Below, piece after piece: positions 30,042 to 47,690 of a DNA stretch of 49,242 bases. The stretch comes from a virus. Its lineage: Duplodnaviria > Heunggongvirae > Uroviricota > Caudoviricetes. Position 1 is the stretch's first letter. Each line of letters starts with the position of its first letter. Under the pieces are notes generated by a model. That model was not told where the DNA came from. It did no database searches and saw nothing but the letters and a program-made list of their open reading frames with translations. A program made the translations under genes and the position numbers. Location: IMG/VR virus record IMGVR_UViG_2690316195_000003; one strand, written 5' to 3'.

Positions 30042-30785
30042 TTATTCTTGAGTAACACTTAAACTCATCTCATTGAATGCAGCCATCCTGTAACCTGCCG
30101 GTGTAACACCAAAATAACTCCTGAATACGCTGATAAAATAAGATGTAAAATTATAGCCGCACTGAGCAGCGATTCTGTTGATGGCGCAACGAGATTGATT
30201 CAACAGCATTGCTGCCATTCTCATTCTCTCTGTAAGCAACAACTCACTGAAACAGGTGCCTTCTTCTTTCAGTCTTTTTTTTAACAAACTTTCACTGATA
30301 CATAACCGCGAAGACACATCTCTCAGAGTCCAGTTTGCTGCAATGTCCGTACGAAACAATGCACTAAGCCTGTCACTAATATTGCTAATACACGCGGTCA
30401 GAAACGACGAAAACATCTTCTCTGATGAGAAAAACGCCAGACACGAAAAGGAAAGCATTTCCGCTAAATTGTCCGTATGAATCTTTTCCTCACAAAGATA
30501 ATCAATCAGGATGCCCATCAATTCTGCCTTCGGAAAACTCACGCAAAGATATCGTGGTATTTGCCGGACTAAAACTACATCCTGTTTTTCGTCTCCACAC
30601 AACAGGTAACGGCTAATTGTCGATTCACTGAGACTTATTCGCCGAAAACATTCCGAAAAGGGCAATAACGATCCAGCTCCCCCCCTGACAAGAAGTGCAC
30701 TACCACTTTCAAGAGAGAGCTCTTTTCCTTCAAAGAGCACAACAAACGGGGAATGAACAAAAACAACAGAACAGGCTTCATTCAT
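30042..30785 (-). CDS. AraC-family transcriptional regulator (prophage moron)
   Basis: C-terminal AraC-type helix-turn-helix region (WTLRDVSSRLCISESLLKKRLKEEG...INRIAAQCGYNFTSYFISVFRSYFGVTPAGYR); start placed at MNEACSVVF; sits between the Q-dependent terminator and the holin. Confidence 0.8.
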   Translation of the reverse strand: MNEACSVVFVHSPFVVLFEGKELSLESGSALLVRGGAGSLLPFSECFRRISLSESTISRYLLCGDEKQDVVLVRQIPRYLCVSFPKAELMGILIDYLCEEKIHTDNLAEMLSFSCLAFFSSEKMFSSFLTACISNISDRLSALFRTDIAANWTLRDVSSRLCISESLLKKRLKEEGTCFSELLLTERMRMAAMLLNQSRCAINRIAAQCGYNFTSYFISVFRSYFGVTPAGYRMAAFNEMSLSVTQE

Positions 30786-30905
30786 ATCAATTGCCCTGAC
30801 ATTACTGGTCACAAGATAAGTATATATCGATTTACAAAAATACAAGCCGAAAGACCAGTATTCGCAACCACCAGCACGTTTTATGTTCTCTGCCGTTTTT
30901 CGGAC

Positions 30906-30931
30906 ATAAAAAACCCGCTCAATGGCGGGTT
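30906..30931 (-). terminator. tR-prime-like intrinsic terminator downstream of Q
   Basis: Minus-strand hairpin aacccgcc-attga-gcgggtt followed by a T-run; located between the Q-like gene stop and the late genes. Confidence 0.45.
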
Positions 30932-31014
30932 GTATCAAAGTTCATGCGCTTGGTTCACCTCGCGATACAGCTTTGCGAAGCTTAGCAAAATTGAAGCGGT
31001 TTATGCGTAAAAAA

Positions 31015-31557
31015 TCAAGCCGTTTTTTGAGCGAATGATTCTCGCATAGGAATGTATAGCGCATACTCAGCAACGGCCAACCAATTAGCAATTCGCTTTT
31101 CGCATGTGCTAAAACACCACTCTGGGTGTGCATCATTTAGCAATTCAGCCATTTTGCGTTTGGTCATCCCCCGCCCCTCATACCGTTGACGAAGGACGCT
31201 AATCAATCCTGGATGCTCTGCCAGCACCTCACTTATGACCCGATCAATACATAACGCCTCTGCATCAGTACAATGCGCCAGCCAGCTCTTTTGCTTACCG
31301 TTAATCATATCCCGCAAAAAAGCCTCAAGTTCAGACTTGTTCAGACCTGCTTTTTTCATCCTCCGGAGCGCCTCGTTAATTGCCGTTTTTGTCAGCTTTT
31401 TAGAGGCCAACAACTGGTTGAACATATTCCCCGTCTTACCGCCGCCAATATACGACCAGCGCCCCCACATGCGCAGTTTTCCCTGAATCCAGACACTTTC
31501 CAGCGTGGTGAGACGAAGGTGTTCCCCGCTTTTGCCTGTATTTGTTGGGTAAATCAT
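31015..31557 (-). CDS. late-gene antitermination protein Q-like
   Basis: Position after YbcN/YbcO-like genes and before a terminator and the lysis genes; ribosome-binding site ggagaaagg before the internal ATG (MIYPTNTGKS); family call by position rather than motif. Confidence 0.5.
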   Translation of the reverse strand: MIYPTNTGKSGEHLRLTTLESVWIQGKLRMWGRWSYIGGGKTGNMFNQLLASKKLTKTAINEALRRMKKAGLNKSELEAFLRDMINGKQKSWLAHCTDAEALCIDRVISEVLAEHPGLISVLRQRYEGRGMTKRKMAELLNDAHPEWCFSTCEKRIANWLAVAEYALYIPMRESFAQKTA

Positions 31558-31844
31558 AAATAACCTTCCTTTCTCCAGATTTCTTGCGTGCGAAAAACAC
31601 CTTCTGCATGCATCAGGCGTAATTCTTCTTTGGTGTAATCGCTTGTTTTTACCCGCCCGTCGATTAAATCGTGGCACGAGCTACAGGCAATCGCTGCCTG
31701 CATATCGTGTGGCTTTATCGCCGTTCCGCACGTTCCCGCCAACCTGTAATGCGCCAGCACAGAAGTTTCGGGATTGTGATTGCAGTAGCCAGGGATTCTG
31801 ACCTGGCACATCTGGCCCCGCGCCGCTTTACGTAAATCCACCAT
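31554..31844 (-). CDS. YbcO-like (DUF1364) protein
   Basis: N-terminus MVDLRKAARGQMCQVRIPGYCNHNPETSVLAHYR resembles the DLP12 YbcO family. Confidence 0.55.
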   Translation of the reverse strand: MVDLRKAARGQMCQVRIPGYCNHNPETSVLAHYRLAGTCGTAIKPHDMQAAIACSSCHDLIDGRVKTSDYTKEELRLMHAEGVFRTQEIWRKEGYL

Positions 31845-32857: not shown

Positions 32858-35122
32858 TTATACGGAAACTGGCACACGAGCAGGCAATGGATAGTGAGCC
32901 CAGTTATTAGCACTTAAAGCTCTTACGCCATCAGCATAAACTTGTGTGTTTCCATCTAATGATTTTAAAGTTACTACAATAGTTACAGGTAAAGGCTCCA
33001 TTAAGGCCGGTTCATTCGCTCTCAACGTTGTTTTAGCTTGAAGAGCCCAGTTACCCGAAGTAATTCCTTTATTAAATGCCTTGCGATGAATTTTTACTGG
33101 TGACCACTTTCCACCATGCTCAATTTGAGCTCTCTCATATCCAGATTGACCGTTTTCTCCTTCCATAGGTACTTTTCCTTTTATAGTATTATTCTCAATT
33201 AAGCCAAAACTTAGCTCTACGTTCGCGCGAACATATTCACTGCCGGCATTAGGGTTCAGTGGTGGTGCATATGCAGCAGTAATTACAATCTCACCTTTAA
33301 ATTTTCCATTTTGAATAAGTGCCGATGGTATGGGATAGTTTTCCTTTCTCCACCTCACCCCAGGAACCAAGAATGTTTGGAAAATCAGAGTAAACCTATC
33401 ATCACTATCATATAAGGTCTCAATAACCTCATTAGGAATTCCCGCTCCCAAATAGCGTCTTTCACTTGGCGAGTAATCAGGAGAAGATAATTGAGCGGAA
33501 TGAATTAATAATGCTTTAATCAATGATGGTGAAACATTAAAGTCTGAATTAGTGGCTATTCTCTGCCATGTATGCGCAGCTAAACTTGCCACAATTGGAG
33601 CAGCAAAACTAGTACCAAAATTAGAGCAAAGCCTATTATCTGGCCCTACGACCTTTAAACTGCTTGCTCCTACATTCCAAGGTCTATGAACCCCACCGCC
33701 AGCATGGATTATATCTGGCTTTGGAGTAAATACAGGCCCAGGGCCACGACGAGTATATGGTGTCGGTGTTCCAATTTCACTTAAAGCATCATTAGCTTCC
33801 ATATGAGAAACTGAACCAACTGTTAGTGCTCGGACTGACTCTCCAGGAGAGGAAATTAAATCAGCACCTCCAAGCGGATCAGGATTTGGCCATGTACGTA
33901 TAGGTTCATCTACATAATTACCTGCAGCAACTACAAACAAAATACCAAATTTATCGCTGAGCCGATCTAACTCCATCGCAAAATCACTAAACATCTGCTC
34001 ATTACATGGTCCGCCTCCCAAAGACAAATTCCAGACTTTTATATCTGGTCTTTTATTTACAGCATCTGCTAGCCTCAGAATTAAATCTGATATATAAGAT
34101 CCATTTTCATCTAAAGCACAAACATCATGGATTTTAGATTTTGTATCAGGAATCCATGGATGATTGTCATTTAAAAAATGAGCGCCTGATATCAATGAAG
34201 ACACCATAGTCCCATGTTCATAACTCGTATCAGGAGGAATTACGTATGTTTCCCTACTCACTACCCAAGGAGTAATTGTTGCCGCGATGGGGCTTACCCC
34301 AGTGTCAAATACAGCAACAATGGGTAATTCTTCTGATGGTACGGGAAAGCTATTTGTTTCAATGCCAACAGAATCACTTACACTAACCGGGAATGCTGAA
34401 TATTTTGGTTCTGGAATTAACGTTCTTATACCCGGGTAATCAATGAGAATGTCTAATATATATCTATCATTTGGGGATAAATCCATTATCCTTAATAAGG
34501 GAAGACCACATTTTTGTCTAATCTCATCATATTTAACTCCGTGTTGTTCTAATATAGAAATAACGTTTTCATAGTTGTTGTAAGTTGCATCTTCACCTGT
34601 GTACTCAAATAGTCGTACAAGGATGTTTGATGATTCAAACAAACCATCAGTGCCTCCTGGAACCTTCCTATTCTCATCCCAAGGTTCAATGCGCTCAATC
34701 GCGCTTAGATTAGCCAAAATCGCTTTAATATTCCGATGTAAAATGACTGACTCTAATACGTCAAAACAGCCGGCATGAGCAGCAACCAACATTTCATCTA
34801 TTTTGGCATGACCGGCATTTTGCAATCCAGCCTCTTGAGCAATTTTGTTCGGCCTATGCGTTTTGGCTATTCCCTGGTCTCTTAATTTGAAAACCAAAGT
34901 ACCCAAGCTTCCAGGGTACTCTGAAAGTTTGGATTCTAAATAATGTTTACTGGTTGTTAAATTTCTTACTAACCCTTGTCTATATTCGGCTGTTACATCA
35001 ACCAATACCTTTGCCCCACCGCCAGCGTTTACTATTGCACCCAAGTCACTACTGGAAAAAGGGATTCTTAACATTGGGTTTGTAACTTTTGCGTTACTAA
35101 ACTGTGTACCCCTTCTGCTCAT
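32858..35122 (-). CDS. S8 subtilisin-like serine protease, cytoplasmic (no signal peptide), with extra N- and C-terminal domains
   Basis: Catalytic triad motifs in canonical order: IVAVFDTGV (Asp273, codon 34304-34306), YEHGTMVSS (His303), GTSFAAP (Ser505), plus NLSLGGG and VVAAGN subtilase motifs; 754 aa; AT-rich. Confidence 0.85.
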   Translation of the reverse strand: MSRRGTQFSNAKVTNPMLRIPFSSSDLGAIVNAGGGAKVLVDVTAEYRQGLVRNLTTSKHYLESKLSEYPGSLGTLVFKLRDQGIAKTHRPNKIAQEAGLQNAGHAKIDEMLVAAHAGCFDVLESVILHRNIKAILANLSAIERIEPWDENRKVPGGTDGLFESSNILVRLFEYTGEDATYNNYENVISILEQHGVKYDEIRQKCGLPLLRIMDLSPNDRYILDILIDYPGIRTLIPEPKYSAFPVSVSDSVGIETNSFPVPSEELPIVAVFDTGVSPIAATITPWVVSRETYVIPPDTSYEHGTMVSSLISGAHFLNDNHPWIPDTKSKIHDVCALDENGSYISDLILRLADAVNKRPDIKVWNLSLGGGPCNEQMFSDFAMELDRLSDKFGILFVVAAGNYVDEPIRTWPNPDPLGGADLISSPGESVRALTVGSVSHMEANDALSEIGTPTPYTRRGPGPVFTPKPDIIHAGGGVHRPWNVGASSLKVVGPDNRLCSNFGTSFAAPIVASLAAHTWQRIATNSDFNVSPSLIKALLIHSAQLSSPDYSPSERRYLGAGIPNEVIETLYDSDDRFTLIFQTFLVPGVRWRKENYPIPSALIQNGKFKGEIVITAAYAPPLNPNAGSEYVRANVELSFGLIENNTIKGKVPMEGENGQSGYERAQIEHGGKWSPVKIHRKAFNKGITSGNWALQAKTTLRANEPALMEPLPVTIVVTLKSLDGNTQVYADGVRALSANNWAHYPLPARVPVSV

Positions 35123-36251
35123 ATGCTCCTGACTCCTTCAGAATGTTTGAAATTACTCTTGATGTAAGTTTGTACAAATTAGCAAGAACTCTGATAGAAA
35201 ATAATTTTTTATCTTTAGAACGTAACCAACGAATTTCATCTTCGTAAGTGCTTAAATTTACACCTTCCATAAGCGATTGAGCAAGATACAAACGCCTATA
35301 CAATTTATGGTGATTTATCACACTTGCACCTTCAATAACTGCATCCCTACGTGCATCCAAGCTCACCTGTTCAATTATTGCTCCGGATAATCCTTCCGAT
35401 TTTCTTGATAAATCACTTAAATCTAGATCGCTACATATCATATTCTTTAAACGATTTTTCCAAATTAACTCTCTCTGATGTATGTCAGGCAGAGGCATTG
35501 GAATTCTGAAGCTAAATCGCCTCCAGATTGCAGGATCCAGAAGTTGCTCATGGTTAGTTGAGGCAATAATTACCGTATCCTCTGATGCCGCATCCATATT
35601 CTGCAATAGTGAAATGACAACTCGCTGAAGCTCACCTATATCTCTCTCATTACCTCTTGCTCCAGCTAAAGCATCAAATTCGTCTAAAAAAAGCACTGAT
35701 GGCCTCTGCATTACATAATCGAAAACCTGTCTAAGATTTTTGCTGGTTTGTCCCAATAAACTACTAATCAAAGTATCGCAACGCACTGTAAGAAGTGGAA
35801 AATCTAAGCGGGTAGCGATGTACTTAGATAACATAGTCTTACCTGTTCCTGGCTTTCCATACACGAGCATACGACTCGGCAATGCTGCATCAGCTTTAAC
35901 AAACTCATCATAACGTTGAACATTAGTGATAAACTCTTCAACACGGGTACTGATTGCTGCAGGCAGAAAAATCTCTGAACTGTCTAATTTAGGATAACTG
36001 ACATCAACAGTGTTGAGTCGACTATCAATATCTACCGGTAATGAGCCCAGAGATATCCCACCTCCAGCCCTTTGAGCTCCTGCCAACGCCTGGGGAGCTC
36101 TAAGCAACCTTTCTCTTATCATTCTGGCTTGCTTGACCTCCCCTTTTTGTTCGAGCTTATCTGCCAGCAACCCAGCATAATTACTAGCCATCGAAGCATT
36201 TGCCTTTGTTGCACCTTCAATGATTTTTAACACTTCTGATAAATAATCCAT
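35097..36251 (-). CDS. classical AAA+ ATPase
   Basis: Walker A YGKPGTGKTML, Walker B VLFLDEFDAL, and sensor / second region of homology IIASTNHEQLLDPAIWRRFSF; 26-bp overlap with the downstream protease gene indicates an operon. Confidence 0.85.
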   Translation of the reverse strand: MDYLSEVLKIIEGATKANASMASNYAGLLADKLEQKGEVKQARMIRERLLRAPQALAGAQRAGGGISLGSLPVDIDSRLNTVDVSYPKLDSSEIFLPAAISTRVEEFITNVQRYDEFVKADAALPSRMLVYGKPGTGKTMLSKYIATRLDFPLLTVRCDTLISSLLGQTSKNLRQVFDYVMQRPSVLFLDEFDALAGARGNERDIGELQRVVISLLQNMDAASEDTVIIASTNHEQLLDPAIWRRFSFRIPMPLPDIHQRELIWKNRLKNMICSDLDLSDLSRKSEGLSGAIIEQVSLDARRDAVIEGASVINHHKLYRRLYLAQSLMEGVNLSTYEDEIRWLRSKDKKLFSIRVLANLYKLTSRVISNILKESGAYEQKGYTV

Positions 36252-37686: not shown

Positions 37687-38229
37687 TCAAACAAAACCAG
37701 CCGCTTTCCGGCGTTCATATTCCTGTTTCAGCAACTCAATTGGTGTTGGCCCCGACGGGCGTTCTGGTGCTGCCAGTTGCCGCCGTACGGGCGGAACGCT
37801 GAAGCCGTCACCAACATGCTTTGCCCATTTCGCCAGTTGCCGTTCTGCAAGTCGTTTTAACTCCCCTTCGGTCATCTGGCGCTCAATCCCCTTTGAACGC
37901 ATCTCGAGGCAAATGTGATACAGCACAGGCTGAGACCACGGGTATTTATCGCTTCCGTCGTATCGCCAGGACTCGTTGCGCCAGCGTCGGTACTCCTCCA
38001 TCACAGCATCCACCGTCAGACCGAATGGATTGGCCCCGCTTTCCGAAATCAGCGCCACAAACTCAGCCAGGTCCGGAGGCCATGTTTCACCCGTCCGGCA
38101 GCGGTCCATGCACTGGCGGCAGACCTGTCGGATTTGCTGCTCAGTCATCGCACCAATCTGTGCAATCCAGAGCTTCGAAGGTGCGGCCCCGTTCTTCTGG
38201 GTCCAGCGGTTCGAATAAACCTCCCCCAT
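37687..38229 (-). CDS. replication protein P-like (helicase loader)
   Basis: C-terminal region (...[39 protein letters not shown]...) resembles the C-terminal region of lambda P; start uncertain (ORF extends to 38352). Confidence 0.5.
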
Positions 38230-39247
38230 GAGTTCCCACAACTTCCAGGCCGTTTCCGTCGCTGATAAATCCGTTTTCACGTTCCCACTGCTCACGTGCT
38301 GCCCGAATTTCCTGAACTGCCCGTGATGCGGTGCCACCTGGTGCTGCTGCATGGTTCACCCCCTTGCTGACTGGTTTAACCTGCGCCCTGACGTGATTTA
38401 CGTGACGGGCGAATTTCTGCTCCCACTGAACCTGCGTGAAAACTTTCCCCTCCGCTGCCCAGTAGTCCCGGAAGGCGGCAAGTTCAGCTGGTGTAAATTC
38501 CGGCTCCGGCAGAGCCACTCCCCACAGAGCTGCCCGCCGTCGAAAATCCAGCGACGGATGCCAGCCATCAGTCATCGGAAATTTCCCGATGGGTTCGTTC
38601 AGGCCTTCCAGGTAATCAGGTTCCGCTGTCTGCAACGGCACGCCATTTGCCTCACTGGCCGGAGCACTCTCGCGCACGCGCGCGTTATGTGTGGGGTTTA
38701 TATATCTGTTATCTGTTATCTGGATACCGCATGACAAAGCGTTAGCCTTATCCTTAGGCTTATCCTCAGGCAAAGGGATTGCCTTATCGAATGCCATCCC
38801 CAAAGCCTCAGAAACCCCATAGGACGCGGCTCTCAGCGATTCCCTGGCCTCCCATTTGAGAGGACAATCAGGAATTAAAGCGAATGCCTTTGCCCAGGAT
38901 TTAATGACATTTATCGAGTTTGGCGGATTGTGTTTCGCAGCATTCGGGAGCCAAAAAACTCTGGCTTTGATATCTGCTTTCACCATGCCAAGATTCATGG
39001 CTTCGCCTAAGGCTAAGTCAAAGGCTTCGATATCCCACCCCAACTCTTCAGCCATTGCTGCCCGCCCGGCTTTAAACAACCCAGGAATAATCCCGGTAAA
39101 TGGACTGGTCAGCAGATAAATAAACAAACTCTGTCCACTTGGAGGCAGAGGAGATAACGCCCTAAATTTGGGATCATCCCATATCGTTATTTTTACCTTG
39201 CGATAAGGCTCATTGTTTGCCTTAGTTTTTGGCATGGGATTTGGCAT
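38141..39247 (-). CDS. replication initiation protein (O-like), contains ori-like repeats
   Basis: Position immediately upstream of the P-like gene; internal clustered repeats; start uncertain (ORF extends to 39319). Confidence 0.45.
38700..38790. repeat. iteron / DnaA-box-like repeat cluster (putative ori) inside the O-like gene
   Basis: ctgttatctgttatctgg then ccttatccttaggcttatcctcagg then gccttatcg; TTATCCTCA is one mismatch from the DnaA box consensus TTATCCACA. Confidence 0.4.
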
Positions 39248-39344
39248 ATTTTTAGCCTTAACCATAATTGCCTCATCTGGTGTCGAACCTTCCTCCGGAT
39301 ATAATCTGTGATTCCCCAATCAACAGAACCAAAGGAGGTTCGAC

Positions 39345-39596
39345 ATGTCTTTTACATTTGATAAGTCTGCTCCATTCCCCCAAAAATTTTGGGTGGACAG
39401 TATTACTGGAACCGAGTCAAAAATTTTTAGCACCTCAGGAATGCTCAATCGCGGAGGAGTAAAAATACTTGCCCAGGAATTCCACACACAGGAGCTAAAT
39501 TACGGGGCTTATCACAAACTAGAGTTGATAATGGATGCAACCCAAATTGATGAACTGATCGTTGCCCTACAAAAGCTAAAAGAAAAGATGTCATAA
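39345..39596 (+). CDS. hypothetical protein (antisense-embedded moron candidate)
   Basis: 83-aa ORF with strong ribosome-binding site aaaggagg before the ATG; on the opposite strand to all neighbouring early genes. Confidence 0.4.
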   Translation: MSFTFDKSAPFPQKFWVDSITGTESKIFSTSGMLNRGGVKILAQEFHTQELNYGAYHKLELIMDATQIDELIVALQKLKEKMS

Positions 39597-39899
39597 TCAC
39601 CCCCTAAAAATTACGTGGCGCAGCGGTTGAGCTTTGCTGTAGTCGATCTCATCGCCATACTCAATATCAAGAGCTTGTCCCTGCGCCAGTTCCATCCACC
39701 GAATGTGTTCTGCGGCTTTTTCTTTATCTTTGATATTGATGAACAACAGCGTTGACGAGGGATACCCGTTAACAAGATGGCGATGCAGAGAGAGTCGTAT
39801 GGCATACCAGGCAACATTTCGGGCTATACGCTGAAGCAATGTTTCGCCTTCCAGTGTTTTAAGTCGGTATTTTTTCAGTTCATATTTTTCCATCACCAC
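39597..39899 (-). CDS. hypothetical protein
   Basis: 100-aa ORF starting 7 bp after the YdaT-like gene stop; its stop abuts the stop of the convergent 83-aa gene. Confidence 0.35.
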   Translation of the reverse strand: MVMEKYELKKYRLKTLEGETLLQRIARNVAWYAIRLSLHRHLVNGYPSSTLLFINIKDKEKAAEHIRWMELAQGQALDIEYGDEIDYSKAQPLRHVIFRG

Positions 39900-39905
39900 A
39901 TCACC

Positions 39906-40328
39906 TTAATGAACAACAACAGAATCGCCGGACGAACCACCGCCGCTGAAATGCGCTTTCCGGTAAACGGCCTGGACTGCATCATCATGCGCATCAATTG
40001 CCGTACTTAACGCTTCCTGCGCCGCCAGTAATGCACGGCGTTCCAGGGTATCGAAGATGCAGAGTCGGTGACGCAACTCGCGCGGAAGGATTGCCAGAAT
40101 TGCTGGGATCAGCTTCTGAATTTTTTCTCTTTGCGTTTTCGTTTCACCTTTCAACCAACGGTGATAGATATTCTGCTGATTGTTCCAGTCCTTGCCTGGA
40201 ACCAGGGGCAATTCGCCGCCCCCCTGGCGCAGATATTCTTCAGTAATTGCATTGGCTACCCATGCCTGCCCTTTTTCGGCTGCCAGGGCAAACAACACTG
40301 ATTCGATGTGCTCATGCTTGATTTTCAT
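39906..40328 (-). CDS. YdaT-like protein (Rac prophage CII-position protein)
   Basis: N-terminus MKIKHEHIESVLFALAAEKG...; 140 aa; immediately downstream of the Cro-like gene. Confidence 0.55.
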   Translation of the reverse strand: MKIKHEHIESVLFALAAEKGQAWVANAITEEYLRQGGGELPLVPGKDWNNQQNIYHRWLKGETKTQREKIQKLIPAILAILPRELRHRLCIFDTLERRALLAAQEALSTAIDAHDDAVQAVYRKAHFSGGGSSGDSVVVH

Positions 40329-40350
40329 GAATCATTTGCCTCTTGATGTT

Positions 40351-40647
40351 TCAGGTATGATCAAATGAGGATTTGTTACTGTCATTTAGTTGCTTCACTG
40401 ACATATTCTGCGAACAACATGCCGAACGTCGTAAATATGACCAGTCAATATCAGGACGAAGCTCTTCGCACAGAACCTCACCTCTTGTTGCTCGTTCAAT
40501 TGCTGGACATCTCTCGGCAGGCAATTGACGTACCCCTTTGATCCATTGATTTACGCTTGGAGGTGATACACCTAAAAGCCTAGCCATTGCTGATTGCCCA
40601 CCGACAACAGCACAAGCTTGCTTGAATGAATAGTTCTCTTTTTTCAT
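40351..40647 (-). CDS. Cro-like HTH regulator (YdaS-like)
   Basis: 98-aa protein with helix-turn-helix (ACAVVGGQSAMARLLGVSPPSVNQWIKG); divergent from the repressor gene. Confidence 0.6.
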   Translation of the reverse strand: MKKENYSFKQACAVVGGQSAMARLLGVSPPSVNQWIKGVRQLPAERCPAIERATRGEVLCEELRPDIDWSYLRRSACCSQNMSVKQLNDSNKSSFDHT

Positions 40648-40675
40648 CGAATGAACTCCAAAAACACACAGAAAT

Positions 40676-40755
40676 ATTAGGCGACGCCTAACATAAATGT
40701 CAATAGGCTATGCCTAATGCGATAAAGGTAGGGATTGCCTAATGCAATGAGCATA
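40676..40755. promoter_or_regulatory. operator cluster in the divergent promoter region (OR-like)
   Basis: Palindromes TTAGGCGACGCCTAA and TAGGCTATGCCTA plus a third partial site, between the Cro-like and repressor genes. Confidence 0.55.
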
Positions 40756-40770
40756 GGAGAATATTAAGCA

Positions 40771-41247
40771 ATGCTTAGTGGTAAAGACTTAGGCCGAGCG
40801 ATAGAGCAGGCCATTAACAAAAAAATCGCATCGGGATCCGTCAAATCAAAGGCGGAGGTCGCACGCCACTTCAAAATCCAACCACCATCAATTTATGACT
40901 GGATTAAGAAAGGCTCCATAAGTAAAGATAAACTTCCAGAATTATGGCGTTTCTTTTCTGATGTTGTTGGTCCAGAGCATTGGGGGCTTAACGAATACCC
41001 CATACCAACCCCCACCAATTCAGATACAAAAAGTGAACTTTTAGATATAAACAACCTTTATCAAGCAGCCTCTGATGAAATAAGAGCGATTGTAGCTTTC
41101 CTGTTATCTGGAAATGCTACAGAACCAGATTGGGTTGACCACGATGTTCGCGCCTACATAGCAGCGATGGAAATGAAAGTGGGTAAGTATCTGAAAGCTC
41201 TAGAATCTGAACGGAAAAGCCAGAACATCACAAAAACTGGAACTTAA
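40771..41247 (+). CDS. racR: prophage repressor (RacR-like)
   Basis: 158-aa protein with N-terminal helix-turn-helix (MLSGKDLGRAIEQAINKK...AEVARHFKIQPPSIYDWIKKG); divergent from the Cro-like gene; flanked by operator palindromes. Confidence 0.65.
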   Translation: MLSGKDLGRAIEQAINKKIASGSVKSKAEVARHFKIQPPSIYDWIKKGSISKDKLPELWRFFSDVVGPEHWGLNEYPIPTPTNSDTKSELLDINNLYQAASDEIRAIVAFLLSGNATEPDWVDHDVRAYIAAMEMKVGKYLKALESERKSQNITKTGT

Positions 41248-43115: not shown

Positions 43116-46100
43116 ATGAGCACAAAACCACTCTTCCTGTTACGGAAAGCGAAAAAATCATCCGGTGAACCTGACGTCGTCCTGTGGGCAAGCGACGATT
43201 TTGAATCGACCTGTGCCACTCTGGACTACCTGATCGTTAAGTCAGGTAAAAAACTGAGCAGCTATTTTAAAGCTGTTGCCACGAATTTTCCTGTCGTTAA
43301 TGACCTGCCCGCTGAAGGTGAGATCGATTTTACCTGGAGTGAACGCTATCAACTCAGCAAAGACTCCATGACATGGGAACTAAAACCGGGAGCAGCACCA
43401 GACAACGCTCACTATCAAGGCAATACCAACGTCAACGGCGAAGACATGACTGAGATTGAGGAGAATATGCTACTCCCAATTTCTGGCCAGGAACTGCCCA
43501 TTCGTTGGCTTGCTCAACACGGCAGCGAAAAACCGGTAACGCACGTTTCACGCGACGGACTCCAGGCATTACACATTGCTCGGGCTGAAGAACTACCGGC
43601 TGTTACTGCCCTGGCTGTTTCCCACAAAACCAGCCTGCTCGACCCGCTGGAAATTCGCGATCTCCACAAACTGGTTCGTGACACTGACAAAGTTTTCCCT
43701 AATCCTGGTAATTCAAACCTGGGACTGATAACTGCTTTTTTCGAAGCATACCTGAACGCTGACTACACCGATCGAGGACTGCTGACAAAAGAGTGGATGA
43801 AGGGTAATCGTGTTTCACACATCACTCGCACGGCTTCCGGTGCTAATGCTGGCGGCGGAAACCTCACCGATCGCGGCGAAGGTTTCGTACACGATCTGAC
43901 GTCACTGGCGCGCGACGTAGCCACTGGCGTACTGGCCCGTTCAATGGATCTGGACATCTATAACCTTCATCCGGCACACGCTAAACGCATTGAGGAAATT
44001 ATCGCTGAAAATAAACCACCCTTTTCTGTTTTCCGCGACAAATTCATCACCATGCCTGGCGGGCTGGATTATTCCCGCGCCATCGTGGTTGCGTCCGTAA
44101 AAGAAGCACCAATTGGGATCGAGGTCATCCCCGCGCACGTCACTGAATATCTGAACAAAGTACTGACTGAAACCGATCATGCCAACCCTGATCCGGAAAT
44201 CGTGGATATTGCCTGCGGTCGCTCCTCTGCCCCGATGCCGCAGCGAGTAACAGAAGAAGGAAAACAGGATGATGAAGAAAAACCGCAACCATCTGGAACA
44301 ACGGCAGTTGAACAGGGAGAGGCTGAAACAATGGAACCGGACGCAACTGAACATCATCAGGACACGCAGCCGCTGGATGCTCAGTCACAGGTAAATTCTG
44401 TTGATGCGAAATATCAGGAACTGCGGGCAGAACTCCATGAAGCCCGGAAAAACATTCCATCAAAAAATCCTGTCGATGCCGATAAATTGCTTGCTGCATC
44501 ACGTGGTGAATTTGTTGACGGAATTAGCGACCCGAACGATCCGAAATGGGTTAAGGGGATCCAGACTCGCGATTCTGTGTACCAGAACCAGCCAGAAACG
44601 GAAAAAACCAGCCCGGATGTGAAACAACCTGAGGCAGTAGTGCAACAGGAACCGGAAATAGTCTGCAATGCCTGCGGTCAGACTGGCGGAGATAACTGCC
44701 CTGACTGTGGGGCGGTGACGGGCGACGCAACATACCAGGAAACATTCGATGAAGAGAATCAGGTTGAAGCTAAGGAAAAAGATCCGGTGGAAATGGAAGG
44801 CGCTGAACATCCGCACAATGAGAATGCTGGCAGCGATCCGCATCGTGATTGCAGTGATGAAACTGGTGAAGCGTCAGCTCCTGTAGCAACTGAAATCATG
44901 TGGCCGTCATATTTCGAGCCTGGCCGCTATGAAAACCTCCCGAACGAGGTTTATCACTCCGCCAACGGAATAAGCAGCACGATGCTGAAGGATGCCCGTA
45001 TCAGCCTGATGTATTACCACGGACGGCACATTGCCGGAACTATTCCGAACGAGGAAAGTGATGCACTGCTGCGTGGGCGGATCATTCACAGCTATGTTCT
45101 GGAAACGGATAAATTCGCTGATGAATATGCCATTCCGGTACCGGTTCCTGAATATGTGGTTACTACTTCTAGCGAACTGATCGCCATCATTAAAAAACAC
45201 AATGCCAGTCTGCCAGCACTGATGACACCAGAGCAGATGAAAGAGTGGATCGAAAGCTACAACAGCACTCTTATACAGCCACTGTCTGTAAGTGCCGGGG
45301 CCGAAGAAACAGGCATCCTTTACGGTTCGCTTCCGGTGGAATTTCGGCGTATTCCTGAGGGGGAAAAACACACAGCATCAGCAATGAAAGCCTGTATTAA
45401 AGAATACAACGCAAGCCTCCCTCCTCTGTTGAAAACCAGTGGAGCACGGGAGCAGCTTCTGGATCAAATTGAAACTGTAGACCCAGAACTGGCAAAAAAA
45501 GAACGTGCTAAATCTTTGCCTTACAACATCAGTGGCACAAAAGAGCAATTAACCGAAATCGCACGGAAAATTCGCCCGGAACTGGTGACACTGGAGGACT
45601 GGCAAAAACGCCAGCAAGAAGAAAATGCCGGGAAAACGTTTATCAGTCCTGAGATGTATGAACAGGCAAAAAATATTCACGCGGCACTGCAAAACAATAC
45701 CGATGCAGCAAGGCTACTCAACCACCCGGATCGCAAATCTGAAATCAGCTATTTCGGGTTTGATGAAGAAACCGGGCTGGAAATCAGGGTCCGTCCTGAT
45801 ATCGAAATCCGGCTGCCATACGAAAGCATTTGCGCTGACGTGAAGTCAGTCAGCCTCGGTTATGTGCGACAGGAACGACTTAAAGATCGCCTGCACCGTG
45901 AAATTATTGAGCGTGATTATCACCTCAGCGCCGCAATGTATTGCGATGTGGCAAACCTGGACAAATTTTTCTGGATCTTCGTCAACAAAGATGCTGGCTA
46001 TCACTGGGTGGCAGTCGTGGAAGCCTCGCAGGAACTCCTGGAACTTGGTCGACAGGAATATCGCCGGACGCTACGCCAGATAAACGAAGCCCTGGAGACA

Positions 46101-46187
46101 AACAACTGGCCAGCACCGATTACCGAAAGTTATACCGACGAATTAAACGACTTTGATCTTCGTCGTCTTGAAGCACTGAGCATCTGA
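43116..46187 (+). CDS. recE: exodeoxyribonuclease VIII (RecE), long form
   Basis: N-terminus [26 protein letters not shown]... and overall architecture match Rac RecE as recalled; 1023 aa. Confidence 0.8.
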
Positions 46188-46198
46188 GGAAGGACACA

Positions 46199-47251
46199 AT
46201 GAACGAATTAACTCAACAAGAAAATATTAACTCTAATGTTGCGGTTTTCAGCCCTCAGTCCCTGGCTGCAATTCAGACATTTTCCCAGGTAATGGCTTCC
46301 GGCATGGCTACTGTACCGGAACACCTCCGGGGAAATCCATCAGACTGCATGGCCATCACCATGCAGGCGATGCAGTGGCAAATGAACCCTTACGCAGTAG
46401 CTCAGAAAACTTTCGTTGTGAATGGTGTGCTCGGATATGAAGCGCAACTGGTTAATGCCGTAATCAGTACTCGTGGGCCGCTAACCGGGCGTATTGAATA
46501 TGACTGGTTCGGGCCGTGGGAAAAAATTATCGGGAAATTTGAAATCAGGAAGAGCGACAAAGGGAAAGAATATCGTGTACCTAGCTGGAAGCTGGCCGAT
46601 GAAAACGGGATCGGTGTTCGTGTCCAGGCAACACTACGCGGCGAAAGTAAACCACGCGTACTGGAATTACTTCTGGCGCAGGCCAGAACACGTAACTCAA
46701 CGCTATGGGCCGACGATCCTCGCCAGCAGCTTGCCTATCTAGCGCTGAAACGCTGGGCGCGCCTTTATTGCCCCGAAGTGATTCTTGGAGTGTACACCAG
46801 GGACGAACTGGACGAGCCACAGGAAAAAATCATTAATCCGGTTCAGGAACATAAAAACACTTCCGCTTGCCGCGCGGAACGTGAAACAACAATTATTGAG
46901 CAGGATGCCGGGGAAAACTGGATCGATGCTTTCCGTGAACGTATTGAGCAGGCACAAAGCACCGGGGAAACAACAGCACTTCGCCAGGAAGTGGAAGATC
47001 ATAAAAATACACTTGGCGCTCTCTATACGGAACTTAAAGGAAAAGTGGTTCAGCGTCATCACCGTCTCAATGCTATTGCCCGTATCGAGAAGATGATAAA
47101 TGACCTACCTTCTTCAGGTGATCCAGAAGCAGAACAAAAATTTACTGCTCTGGAAAATACGCTGAATGCTGCCCGGCCACATCTGGGTGAATTATATGAG
47201 GCGTATAAAACGACACTGACAGATATGAAACCAGAATATATCGGCTCCTGA
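46199..47251 (+). CDS. single-strand annealing protein partner of RecE (RecT/Red-beta-like; family uncertain)
   Basis: Occupies the recT position directly after recE; sequence differs from canonical K-12 RecT as recalled. Confidence 0.45.
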   Translation: MNELTQQENINSNVAVFSPQSLAAIQTFSQVMASGMATVPEHLRGNPSDCMAITMQAMQWQMNPYAVAQKTFVVNGVLGYEAQLVNAVISTRGPLTGRIEYDWFGPWEKIIGKFEIRKSDKGKEYRVPSWKLADENGIGVRVQATLRGESKPRVLELLLAQARTRNSTLWADDPRQQLAYLALKRWARLYCPEVILGVYTRDELDEPQEKIINPVQEHKNTSACRAERETTIIEQDAGENWIDAFRERIEQAQSTGETTALRQEVEDHKNTLGALYTELKGKVVQRHHRLNAIARIEKMINDLPSSGDPEAEQKFTALENTLNAARPHLGELYEAYKTTLTDMKPEYIGS

Positions 47252-47314: not shown

Positions 47315-47509
47315 ATGCGGTATGAAAAAGTCAAACCATGCCCTTTTTGTGGTTGTCCATCAGTAACGGTGAAAGCCATTTCAGGATATTACCGCGCGAA
47401 GTGTAACGGATGCGAATCCCGAACCGGCTATGGTGGAAGTGAAAAAGAAGCACTCGAACGATGGAATAAACGAACCACTGGAAATAATAATGGAGGTGTT
47501 CATGTATAA
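47315..47509 (+). CDS. lar: restriction alleviation protein Lar
   Basis: 64-aa protein ...KPCPFCGCPSVTVKAISGYYRAKCNGCESRTGYGGSEKEALERWNKR... matches the Lar (RalR) family of Rac. Confidence 0.8.
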   Translation: MRYEKVKPCPFCGCPSVTVKAISGYYRAKCNGCESRTGYGGSEKEALERWNKRTTGNNNGGVHV

Positions 47510-47690
47510 AATTACCGCCACTATTGAAAAGGAAGGTGGCACTCCTACTAACTGGACAAGGTACTCAAAAACAAAATTAACCAAATCAGAATGCGAAAAA
47601 ATGCTCTCAGGTAAAAAAGAAGCAGGCGTTTCCAGAGAGCAGAAAGTAAAACTGATAAATTTTAATTGCGAGCAACTTCAGTCCTCGTGA
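47502..47690 (+). CDS. small early protein (YdaC-position)
   Basis: 62-aa ORF with ribosome-binding site ggagg before the ATG; overlaps the lar stop. Confidence 0.45.
   Translation: MYKITATIEKEGGTPTNWTRYSKTKLTKSECEKMLSGKKEAGVSREQKVKLINFNCEQLQSS

Follow-up and report, generated by a model that had tools for sequence, protein, structure and literature searches.

Introduction

What do two small, convergent orphan genes do inside the early-right operon of a lambdoid prophage? The question arises in the IMG/VR record IMGVR_UViG_2690316195_000003, a stretch of 49,242 nucleotides (nt) that we analysed as a whole and call the window. The window holds a complete prophage, from the tail genes through recET and ralA to the integrase. 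Its flanking genes identify the early operon as that of a lambdoid E. coli prophage of the Rac/CP-933P type. An initial annotation had described an 83-amino-acid (aa) plus-strand gene embedded antisense in this operon, ending against a 100-aa minus-strand gene, and had taken it for a typical moron, possibly with a role in exclusion or counter-defence. Here the minus-strand gene is called A and the plus-strand gene B.

We found that A and B travel together as one accessory cassette in a variable slot. Taken alone, the pair is an ordinary-looking orphan cassette. What is added is a shared, bifunctional element of about 70 bp at the start of B, the 'head', which the initial annotation had missed. 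We consider the structural statements made below, namely the cassette, the hot spot that it occupies, the shared head and the operon-sense hairpin within it, to be very probable. Our model for how the two genes are used is more tentative and is taken up in the Discussion. In the literature we found no paper describing the gene pair, its accessions or the head sequence.

Results

Two coding genes that meet at their stop codons

Gene B is located on the plus strand at 39345-39596, antisense to the early-right operon, and encodes 83 aa. It is listed in RefSeq as WP_000010975.1, 'hypothetical protein'. The Shine-Dalgarno sequence GGAGG (39334-39338) ends 6 nt ahead of its ATG at 39345, so the strong ribosome-binding site described initially is indeed there. 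Gene A, at 39597-39893 on the minus strand, has the sense of the operon and directly follows ydaT. Its existence is borne out but its length is not: in all homologues and in RefSeq it starts at the ATG at 39893, which gives 98 aa, and not at the GTG at 39899, which would give 100. This ATG is 12 nt past the ydaT stop codon and has its own Shine-Dalgarno sequence, AAGGTGA. At the A/B junction (TAA|TCA) the stop codons abut with no base between them, as first described. The embedding in the operon is also correct. Read along the minus strand, ydaS and ydaT are followed by A, then by the antisense gene B, a replication initiator with a DnaT domain and a lambda-P-like gene.

Both genes were compared with copies of about 80% protein identity in Citrobacter freundii (locus L004) and in a metagenome contig (L008). 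The ratio of nonsynonymous to synonymous substitution rates (dN/dS) is 0.09-0.14 for A and 0.19-0.34 for B. These values are well below 1 and indicate that A and B are both genuine coding genes. The synonymous rate itself is two- to three-fold lower in B (0.3-0.4) than in A (0.8-1.3). Both are conserved as open reading frames (ORFs) down to 35-40% identity in several genera.

The two families are small. Among 5.8 billion proteins B has 11 clusters, none of them below 65% identity, and an exhaustive HMMER scan of 1.84 billion representatives added just 5 more distant clusters. A forms about 20 clusters, and every named source belongs to the Enterobacteriaceae. The N-terminal helix of A, ETLIQRIARNVAWYALRIARP, is strikingly conserved, and so is its C-terminus, PVPLHHVIFRG. 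Conservation in B is found in the strands FTFDK, FWVDS and VKILAQEF and in the C-terminal helix QIDELIxxLQxLK.

The initial annotation had seen no recognisable motif in either protein, and profile and structure searches gave nothing usable to set against this. With the single sequences and with family alignments, neither protein had a usable match in Pfam, PHROGs, NCBIfam or the PDB sequences. In PADLOC, B matched no known defence system and A matched only HEC-05 (E=0.0028, 14.6 bits, 45 residues of a 583-position profile). AlphaFold2 models built from the shallow alignments were unusable, with a predicted local distance difference test score (pLDDT) of 43.2 for A and 49.7 for B. The A model was too poor for a fold search. 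With the poor B model, Foldseek returned nothing better than E>2 and a template modelling (TM) score below 0.3. A hydrophobic segment or signal peptide was not obvious in A or B by eye, no predictor having been run. Nothing in these results points to an exclusion or counter-defence function.

Several specific assignments were tried and rejected. Two weak single-sequence matches of A, HEC-05 among them, pointed to the N-terminal region of DUF262/BrxU proteins, and profiles did not reproduce them. A resemblance between A and lambda CIII, the FtsH inhibitor (ETLLQRIARN versus ESLLERITRK), gave 4% over 18 columns in hhalign, with no Pfam match. For B, similarity to the RF-1 domain of ArfB/YaeJ is local, covering 23 residues with the motif AQEFxxQELN (hhalign 38%). 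The GGQ motif is missing, Pfam gave no match, and the local motif is missing from distant relatives of B. A PC4-like fold that binds single-stranded DNA scored 1.2% in hhalign. A BssS-like assignment also scored 1.2%, even though the genes found in the same slot in other prophages include a true BssS-family member.

A mobile cassette in a variable slot

The convergent arrangement of A and B, with stop codons abutting or slightly overlapping, was found at at least 10 independent loci. They come from E. coli, Citrobacter, Enterobacter, Salmonella and metagenomes. The identity of B among these loci goes down to 35%, and to 47% where both genes are present. The A partners are homologous across all of them. 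At L004, L008, L009, L013, L014, L016 and L018 the pair lies behind ydaT. At L011 and L012 it is elsewhere in the operon, with cro on one side and a true lambda-type cII on the other. L074 and L118 hold diverged cassettes composed of a remote A homologue (hhalign 91-93%) and a small antisense protein, for which homology to B was not detected. In L012, L074 and L118 the two genes overlap; the range is 21 to about 180 nt, and the latter two loci have about 170 nt.

The cassette is present in 19 of 5,426 complete E. coli genomes, and sequences matching its flanks are present in 1,485. Both the accompanying replication module (DnaT/P-type or ydaU/ydaV) and the immunity region vary. These differences, together with its rarity across genomes, indicate that the cassette is mobile. 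At L003, L151 and L152 the slot holds other genes. Searches of 50,697 phage records by tblastn gave no match to A or B.

A shared head element

The head spans 39277-39347. On the plus strand it comprises the predicted promoter of B, the 5' untranslated region (UTR), the Shine-Dalgarno sequence and the ATG; on the minus strand it forms an imperfect 65-nt hairpin. DNA alignments show hardly any change in it, against differences of 15-20% in the coding regions, and it can still be recognised at loci whose B identity has dropped to 35-57%. Conservation at the locus is highest in the head, not in A or B.

The predicted promoter is of the sigma-70 type and extends over 39277-39305. It consists of a -35 element, CTGGTG (39277-39282), a 17-nt spacer and a -10 element, TATAAT (39300-39305). 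The -35 element reads TTGGTG in most relatives, and TAnnnT is kept at the -10 position in all 36 distinct heads. A 5' UTR of about 33 nt follows, then GGAGG and the ATG. The stretch AAGGAGGTTCGACATG is conserved in nearly all related heads; only L010, the most divergent locus, differs. No terminator-like site was found on the plus strand downstream of B up to 40800, and none between B and the repressor gene.

The 3' half of the head, GAACCNNAGGAGGTTCGACAT, occurs at at least 120 IMG/VR prophage loci. Among the loci listed, the head ATG opens at least 12 unrelated ORF families. These cargos include two different 151-aa families, a 97-aa family (phrog_4753), a BssS-family gene, a 131-aa protein with a hydrophobic N-terminus and several proteins of 70-88 aa; most are without known function. 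Where markers are recognisable, head and cargo nearly all lie between the replication-initiator gene and ydaT, antisense to both. The head is always 16-50 nt upstream of the next operon gene, which is a replication gene or cII.

In complete E. coli genomes the head is common (635 of 5,426, with up to 4 copies per genome). EDL933 (O157:H7) carries it at 1,257,144-1,257,213, in CP-933P, directly after the paaR2-ydaS-ydaT switch, where the cargo is annotated as an 'ECs1072 family phage-associated protein'. ECs1072 of O157 Sakai is listed among growth-phase-regulated genes in uninduced cells (PMC2241611). Only two phage records contain the head, PP818812.1, labelled Actinobacillus phage vB_Apl-pPE4, and OM284015.1, labelled Elizabethkingia phage EKP1. 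Over 89 nt PP818812.1 is 100% identical to the window, and its genes are arranged as in Rac, so the host named in the record may be incorrect.

Other cassettes at the slot have partners of their own. In these, a conserved operon-sense ORF overlaps the cargo convergently by about 190-320 nt. Partners of 125-137 aa accompany one of the 151-aa cargos and partners of 160-186 aa the other. Such overlapping sister cassettes were identified at L151 (3584-4217), L033, L052, L110, L029, L034 and L040. A two-gene convergent design therefore seems common at the slot. We found no homology between A and the partner ORFs X137 and X186 of the other cassettes. RefSeq calls only one of the two ORFs in L003 and L152, and both are called in PP818812. 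One gene is therefore missed systematically.

A second, degenerate head, which has no ATG, is found in L010 at 1618-1698, past B and shortly ahead of the ydaT end. This copy resembles the remnant of an earlier cassette, and it hints at recombinational exchange of cassettes at the head.

These results bear on the description of B as a typical moron. The slot is polymorphic, the promoter-like element is conserved and the translation start is strong, all of which agree with that description. The agreement ends at the missing terminator and at the coupling of B to A, which means that B is not a lone gene. In its simplest form the proposal would make B a one-gene moron that acts in the lysogen, for example in superinfection exclusion or anti-defence, with A a functionally unlinked neighbour. 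Many single small cargos do sit behind the same head, which provides each with a predicted autonomous promoter and a Shine-Dalgarno sequence, and B occurs once without A, at L010. However, we gathered about 120 loci independently, via the head element, and among those listed an A-like ORF lies downstream only where the cargo is B-like and never with another cargo type. The pair also relocates jointly, to the cro/cII position too, and the other cargo families have matched operon-sense partners. An unlinked A is therefore unlikely.

An operon-sense hairpin in the head

The head is an imperfect inverted repeat with arms at 39281-39290 and 39336-39345, and on the minus strand it continues into CCA at 39280-39278. 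Both strands fold significantly (z -4.3 and -4.1). We compared the two strands in the 36 distinct heads, a set whose search pattern fixed one arm, so that the independent evidence comes from the other arm and the apex only. On the minus strand 96.7% of positions are standard pairs, compared with 80.9% for the plus strand. Of the 36 heads, 35 have their more stable fold on the minus strand (mean -31.3 vs -23.5 kcal/mol). Several hairpin positions alternate among U.G, U-A and C-G, and the apical helix contains true double changes. The score for pairing and covariation was reached by none of 500 shuffles, and controls slid along the sequence fell to 32-53% pairing. Together, pairing, stability and covariation favour selection of the hairpin on the operon-sense strand.

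On that strand the helix starts with G-C, followed by (A/U/G)CCA, and the CCA is present in all 36 heads. The helix with its CCA resembles the acceptor end of a tRNA, and the same bases also form the putative -35 element. An Rfam cmscan of 38900-40900 at E<=10 gave three chance-level matches, none of them C4. If a plus-strand transcript starts after the -10 element it lacks the left arm, and the Shine-Dalgarno sequence of B would be free; in a transcript from further upstream it would be paired.

The hairpin apex contains TGATTCCCCAATCA (39309-39322), in which the half-sites of the YdaT operator appear as TGATT-N4-AATCA, with a spacer of 4 nt and not 6. This is its single exact occurrence in the window, and other head variants are without it. 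The resemblance is probably coincidental.

The conservation of the head raises the possibility that the cassette is mainly an RNA-level regulator. Lambda itself has examples of antisense transcription in oop, pRE and paQ. Under this explanation, head-on transcription and the hairpin would tune the flow of early-right transcription into the replication genes or cII, and the proteins would be secondary passengers. It fits the short distance of the head from the next operon gene and the fact that head rather than cargo is conserved, and the lower synonymous rate of B hints at constraint at the nucleotide level. Position and orientation also mirror lambda oop (PMC7067206). In contrast, the cargo ORFs are intact and under purifying selection, and all cargos keep a near-perfect Shine-Dalgarno sequence, which a pure RNA device would not need. 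Moreover, many related prophages have no insert at the slot; in K-12 Rac, ydaU presumably follows ydaT directly and the slot is empty. We regard a mainly regulatory role as doubtful.

The surrounding prophage

The slot is bordered on the right by ydaT (39906-40328, minus strand), the CII-equivalent gene, which matches Pfam YdaT_toxin (3.9e-11) and a PHROG annotated 'CII-like' (2.4e-37). Its left-hand border is the DnaT-domain replication initiator (38141-~39265, minus strand), recognised in Pfam and PHROG profile scans. The start of the initiator is likely the ATG at 39265, 16 nt past the hairpin, because in L002 both a homology break and the ydaU start fall on this ATG. Further out, flanking-gene identification gave the lambda-P-like gene (37687-38352, minus strand), the cro-like ydaS (40351-40647, minus strand) and the repressor gene (40771-41247, plus strand).

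An inverted repeat resembling the YdaT operator, TTGATTTTCATGAATCAT (40318-40335), spans the ydaT start codon at the ydaS/ydaT junction. It has one mismatch to the published operator TTGATTN6AATCAA, and it is in the same place as the operator of CP-933P (PMC9986795). Its location places the PRE analogue at this junction, which suggests that this prophage has kept a PRE-type promoter region. Because this location agrees with the published one, we rejected the alternative that the B promoter is the PRE analogue.

Between the replication module and the Q-like antiterminator gene, the window also encodes a match to the IetAS system. It consists of IetA, a 384-aa AAA ATPase (35097-36251, minus strand; PADLOC E=9e-143, Pfam AAA), and IetS, a 754-aa subtilase (32858-35122, minus strand; PADLOC E=1e-300, Pfam Peptidase_S8). 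The prophage therefore already has one recognised anti-phage defence system. A gene for a 298-aa AraC-family regulator (30042-30938, minus strand; HTH_18/HTH_AraC) adjoins the Q-like antiterminator region (31015-31677; DUF1133/Phage_antitermQ) and is an unusual passenger for a lambdoid late-control region. A full-length Rfam match to RalA, with 215 bits against a gathering score of 170, is found at 47508-47686 on the minus strand. This small RNA is the antitoxin in the ralR/ralA type I toxin-antitoxin pair of the Rac prophage, and here it adjoins recE (43116-46187) and recT (46199-47251).

Discussion

A tentative model of reciprocal expression

We propose that B is the lysogen-state partner and A the lytic-state partner of the cassette, and that head-on transcription controls them reciprocally. 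In the lysogen, the early-right promoter would be repressed and the head promoter alone would fire, so that B is made. Unterminated past the abutting stop codons, the B transcript would run antisense over A and ydaT and keep both silent. Upon induction or infection, strong early-right transcription would lead to translation of A right behind ydaT. The early transcript would then cross B in the antisense direction, collide with the B promoter, and yield a hairpin RNA fully complementary to the 5' UTR, Shine-Dalgarno sequence and AUG of B, turning B off. B would be an accessory or defence factor of the lysogenic state, and A its lytic-state antagonist, providing self-immunity. The hairpin could also act in RNA processing or stabilisation directly ahead of the replication gene.

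Casting A and B as opposed partners in the life cycle draws on the analogy with the Tha/Ith genes of staphylococcal prophages, described below. Support for the model comes from the coupling of A to B, the lack of a plus-strand terminator, the sister cassettes with their own partners, and the listing of ECs1072 in uninduced cells. As a whole, its chance of being correct seems to us appreciable, somewhat short of even.

Several points weigh against it. The terms 'effector' and 'antagonist' are pure inference from gene geometry, no homologue of known function was detectable for A or B, and their structure models were unusable. The sigma-70-like promoter of B is only predicted, and a consensus promoter scan did not call it because its -35 element is weak. 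The arm fixed in the search of the 36 heads narrows the evidence for the hairpin. Each gene can persist alone: B is without A at L010, and L019 has a full A after a truncated A-like ORF and an antisense gene unrelated to B. Finally, conservation of the head could come in part from its use as a recombination joint between cassettes and not from function.

The same geometry could also describe a toxin-antitoxin-type module for addiction or abortive infection. A would be a toxin made upon derepression, and B, as protein, antisense transcript or both, the antidote in the lysogen. Convergent genes with fully overlapping 3' ends are known from type I systems such as par of pAD1 and txpA/RatA. The small size of the proteins, their tight association and the prophage setting agree with such a module. 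The neighbouring genes ydaS and ydaT are reported to be toxic if derepressed (PMC5700377). However, neither protein has similarity to a toxin or antitoxin family in Pfam, NCBIfam or PADLOC, and by eye neither resembles a hydrophobic peptide. The genes are convergent and do not form the co-directional operon typical of type II systems. In addition, the lytic operon has A ahead of essential replication genes, and a toxin made there would be harmful to the phage. We find this explanation quite improbable.

Reciprocal expression of A and B could be part of a broader scheme, in which the head is a bifunctional docking platform for interchangeable cargo. One strand would provide a lysogeny promoter and ribosome-binding site, and the other a processed hairpin like a tRNA acceptor, with G-C as its first pair, a discriminator and CCA. 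The hairpin would be cut from the early lytic transcript, for example by RNase P or RNase III. It would then be a universal antisense RNA that silences all head-driven cargos, those of co-resident prophages included, as soon as one of these prophages enters lytic growth, and the cut would give the replication-gene message a defined, protected 5' end. Operon-sense partners such as A would be cargo-specific protein antidotes. As a complete scheme this is speculative, and we give it a low probability.

The last alternative, that one or both ORFs are annotation noise, a chance frame opposite a real gene, might be suspected of small orphans with no family matches and poor models, and is effectively refuted: the frames of A and B have no overlap, both genes show many synonymous changes and a dN/dS well below 1, and the ORFs are kept across genera at the low identities given above.

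If reciprocal expression behind a shared head is correct, Rac/CP-933P-type prophages have a standardised slot for cargo where decision genes meet replication genes, and over 10% of complete E. coli genomes possess it, O157:H7 included. A single shared control element would there serve dozens of small genes that are uncharacterised. Searching for the head would then provide a handle on prophage functions expressed in lysogeny and on their built-in off-switches. The logic of nested antisense genes, found in staphylococcal prophages, would extend to enterobacterial lambdoid phages. The operon-sense hairpin with its CCA tail is in addition a candidate new phage regulatory RNA. It lies immediately ahead of the replication genes, in a prophage family whose switch (RacR/YdaS/YdaT, PaaR2) is the subject of current work.

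Comparison with known systems

The closest parallel in gene logic is the Tha/Ith pair of S. aureus prophages. It consists of a defence gene and a small, overlapping antisense inhibitor gene, which are reciprocally expressed (Rostol et al., 2024; PMC11087260). The opposite timing of the two products comes about through colliding polymerases and double-stranded RNA, and one product neutralises the other, with the result that the prophage is protected in lysogeny and unharmed on induction (PMC11087260). Like this 'noncontiguous operon', the cassette has an antisense gene nested in a prophage operon, with its own promoter and overlapping transcripts, both of them predicted here. Unlike it, A and B have no sequence or domain relation to Tha/Ith (no HEPN domain) and belong to another host clade. 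The operon is also a different one, early-right here and the cI operon there. The proposed roles are reversed as well, in that the nested gene would be the lysogen-state gene and the operon gene the lytic-state gene.

Lambda oop is a 77-nt non-coding RNA that ends at its own terminator. Its promoter pO and the predicted head promoter share direction and place: both point leftward at the border of cII and the replication genes, with transcription running antisense to the last part of the early-right decision genes. The Salmonella prophage BTP1 has an OOP equivalent at this border (PMC7067206). The B transcript would differ from oop in being protein-coding, with no terminator predicted, an unrelated sequence and no Rfam match.

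The hairpin invites comparison with the C4 RNA of P1/P7, the CI RNA of P4 and the CA RNA of N15, structured RNAs that RNase P cuts from the early transcript. Their helix is like an acceptor stem and carries a 3' CCA, and they act by blocking a downstream antirepressor or replication gene at the level of translation or transcription. The minus-strand hairpin likewise starts with G-C and ends in A-CCA, would lie in the early transcript just before a replication gene, and is complementary to a translation start. It differs in having no match to the Rfam C4 model and in that its target is on the opposite strand of the same DNA.

Lambdoid morons such as bor, lom, rexAB and sieB are dispensable for growth and polymorphic, and have their own promoter, often in opposite orientation. 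The cassette is similarly optional, polymorphic in presence and absence, and equipped with a promoter-like element of its own. Unlike these morons, it has no terminator of its own; it is a two-gene convergent unit, in a fixed slot, behind a standardised head that it shares with many other cargos.

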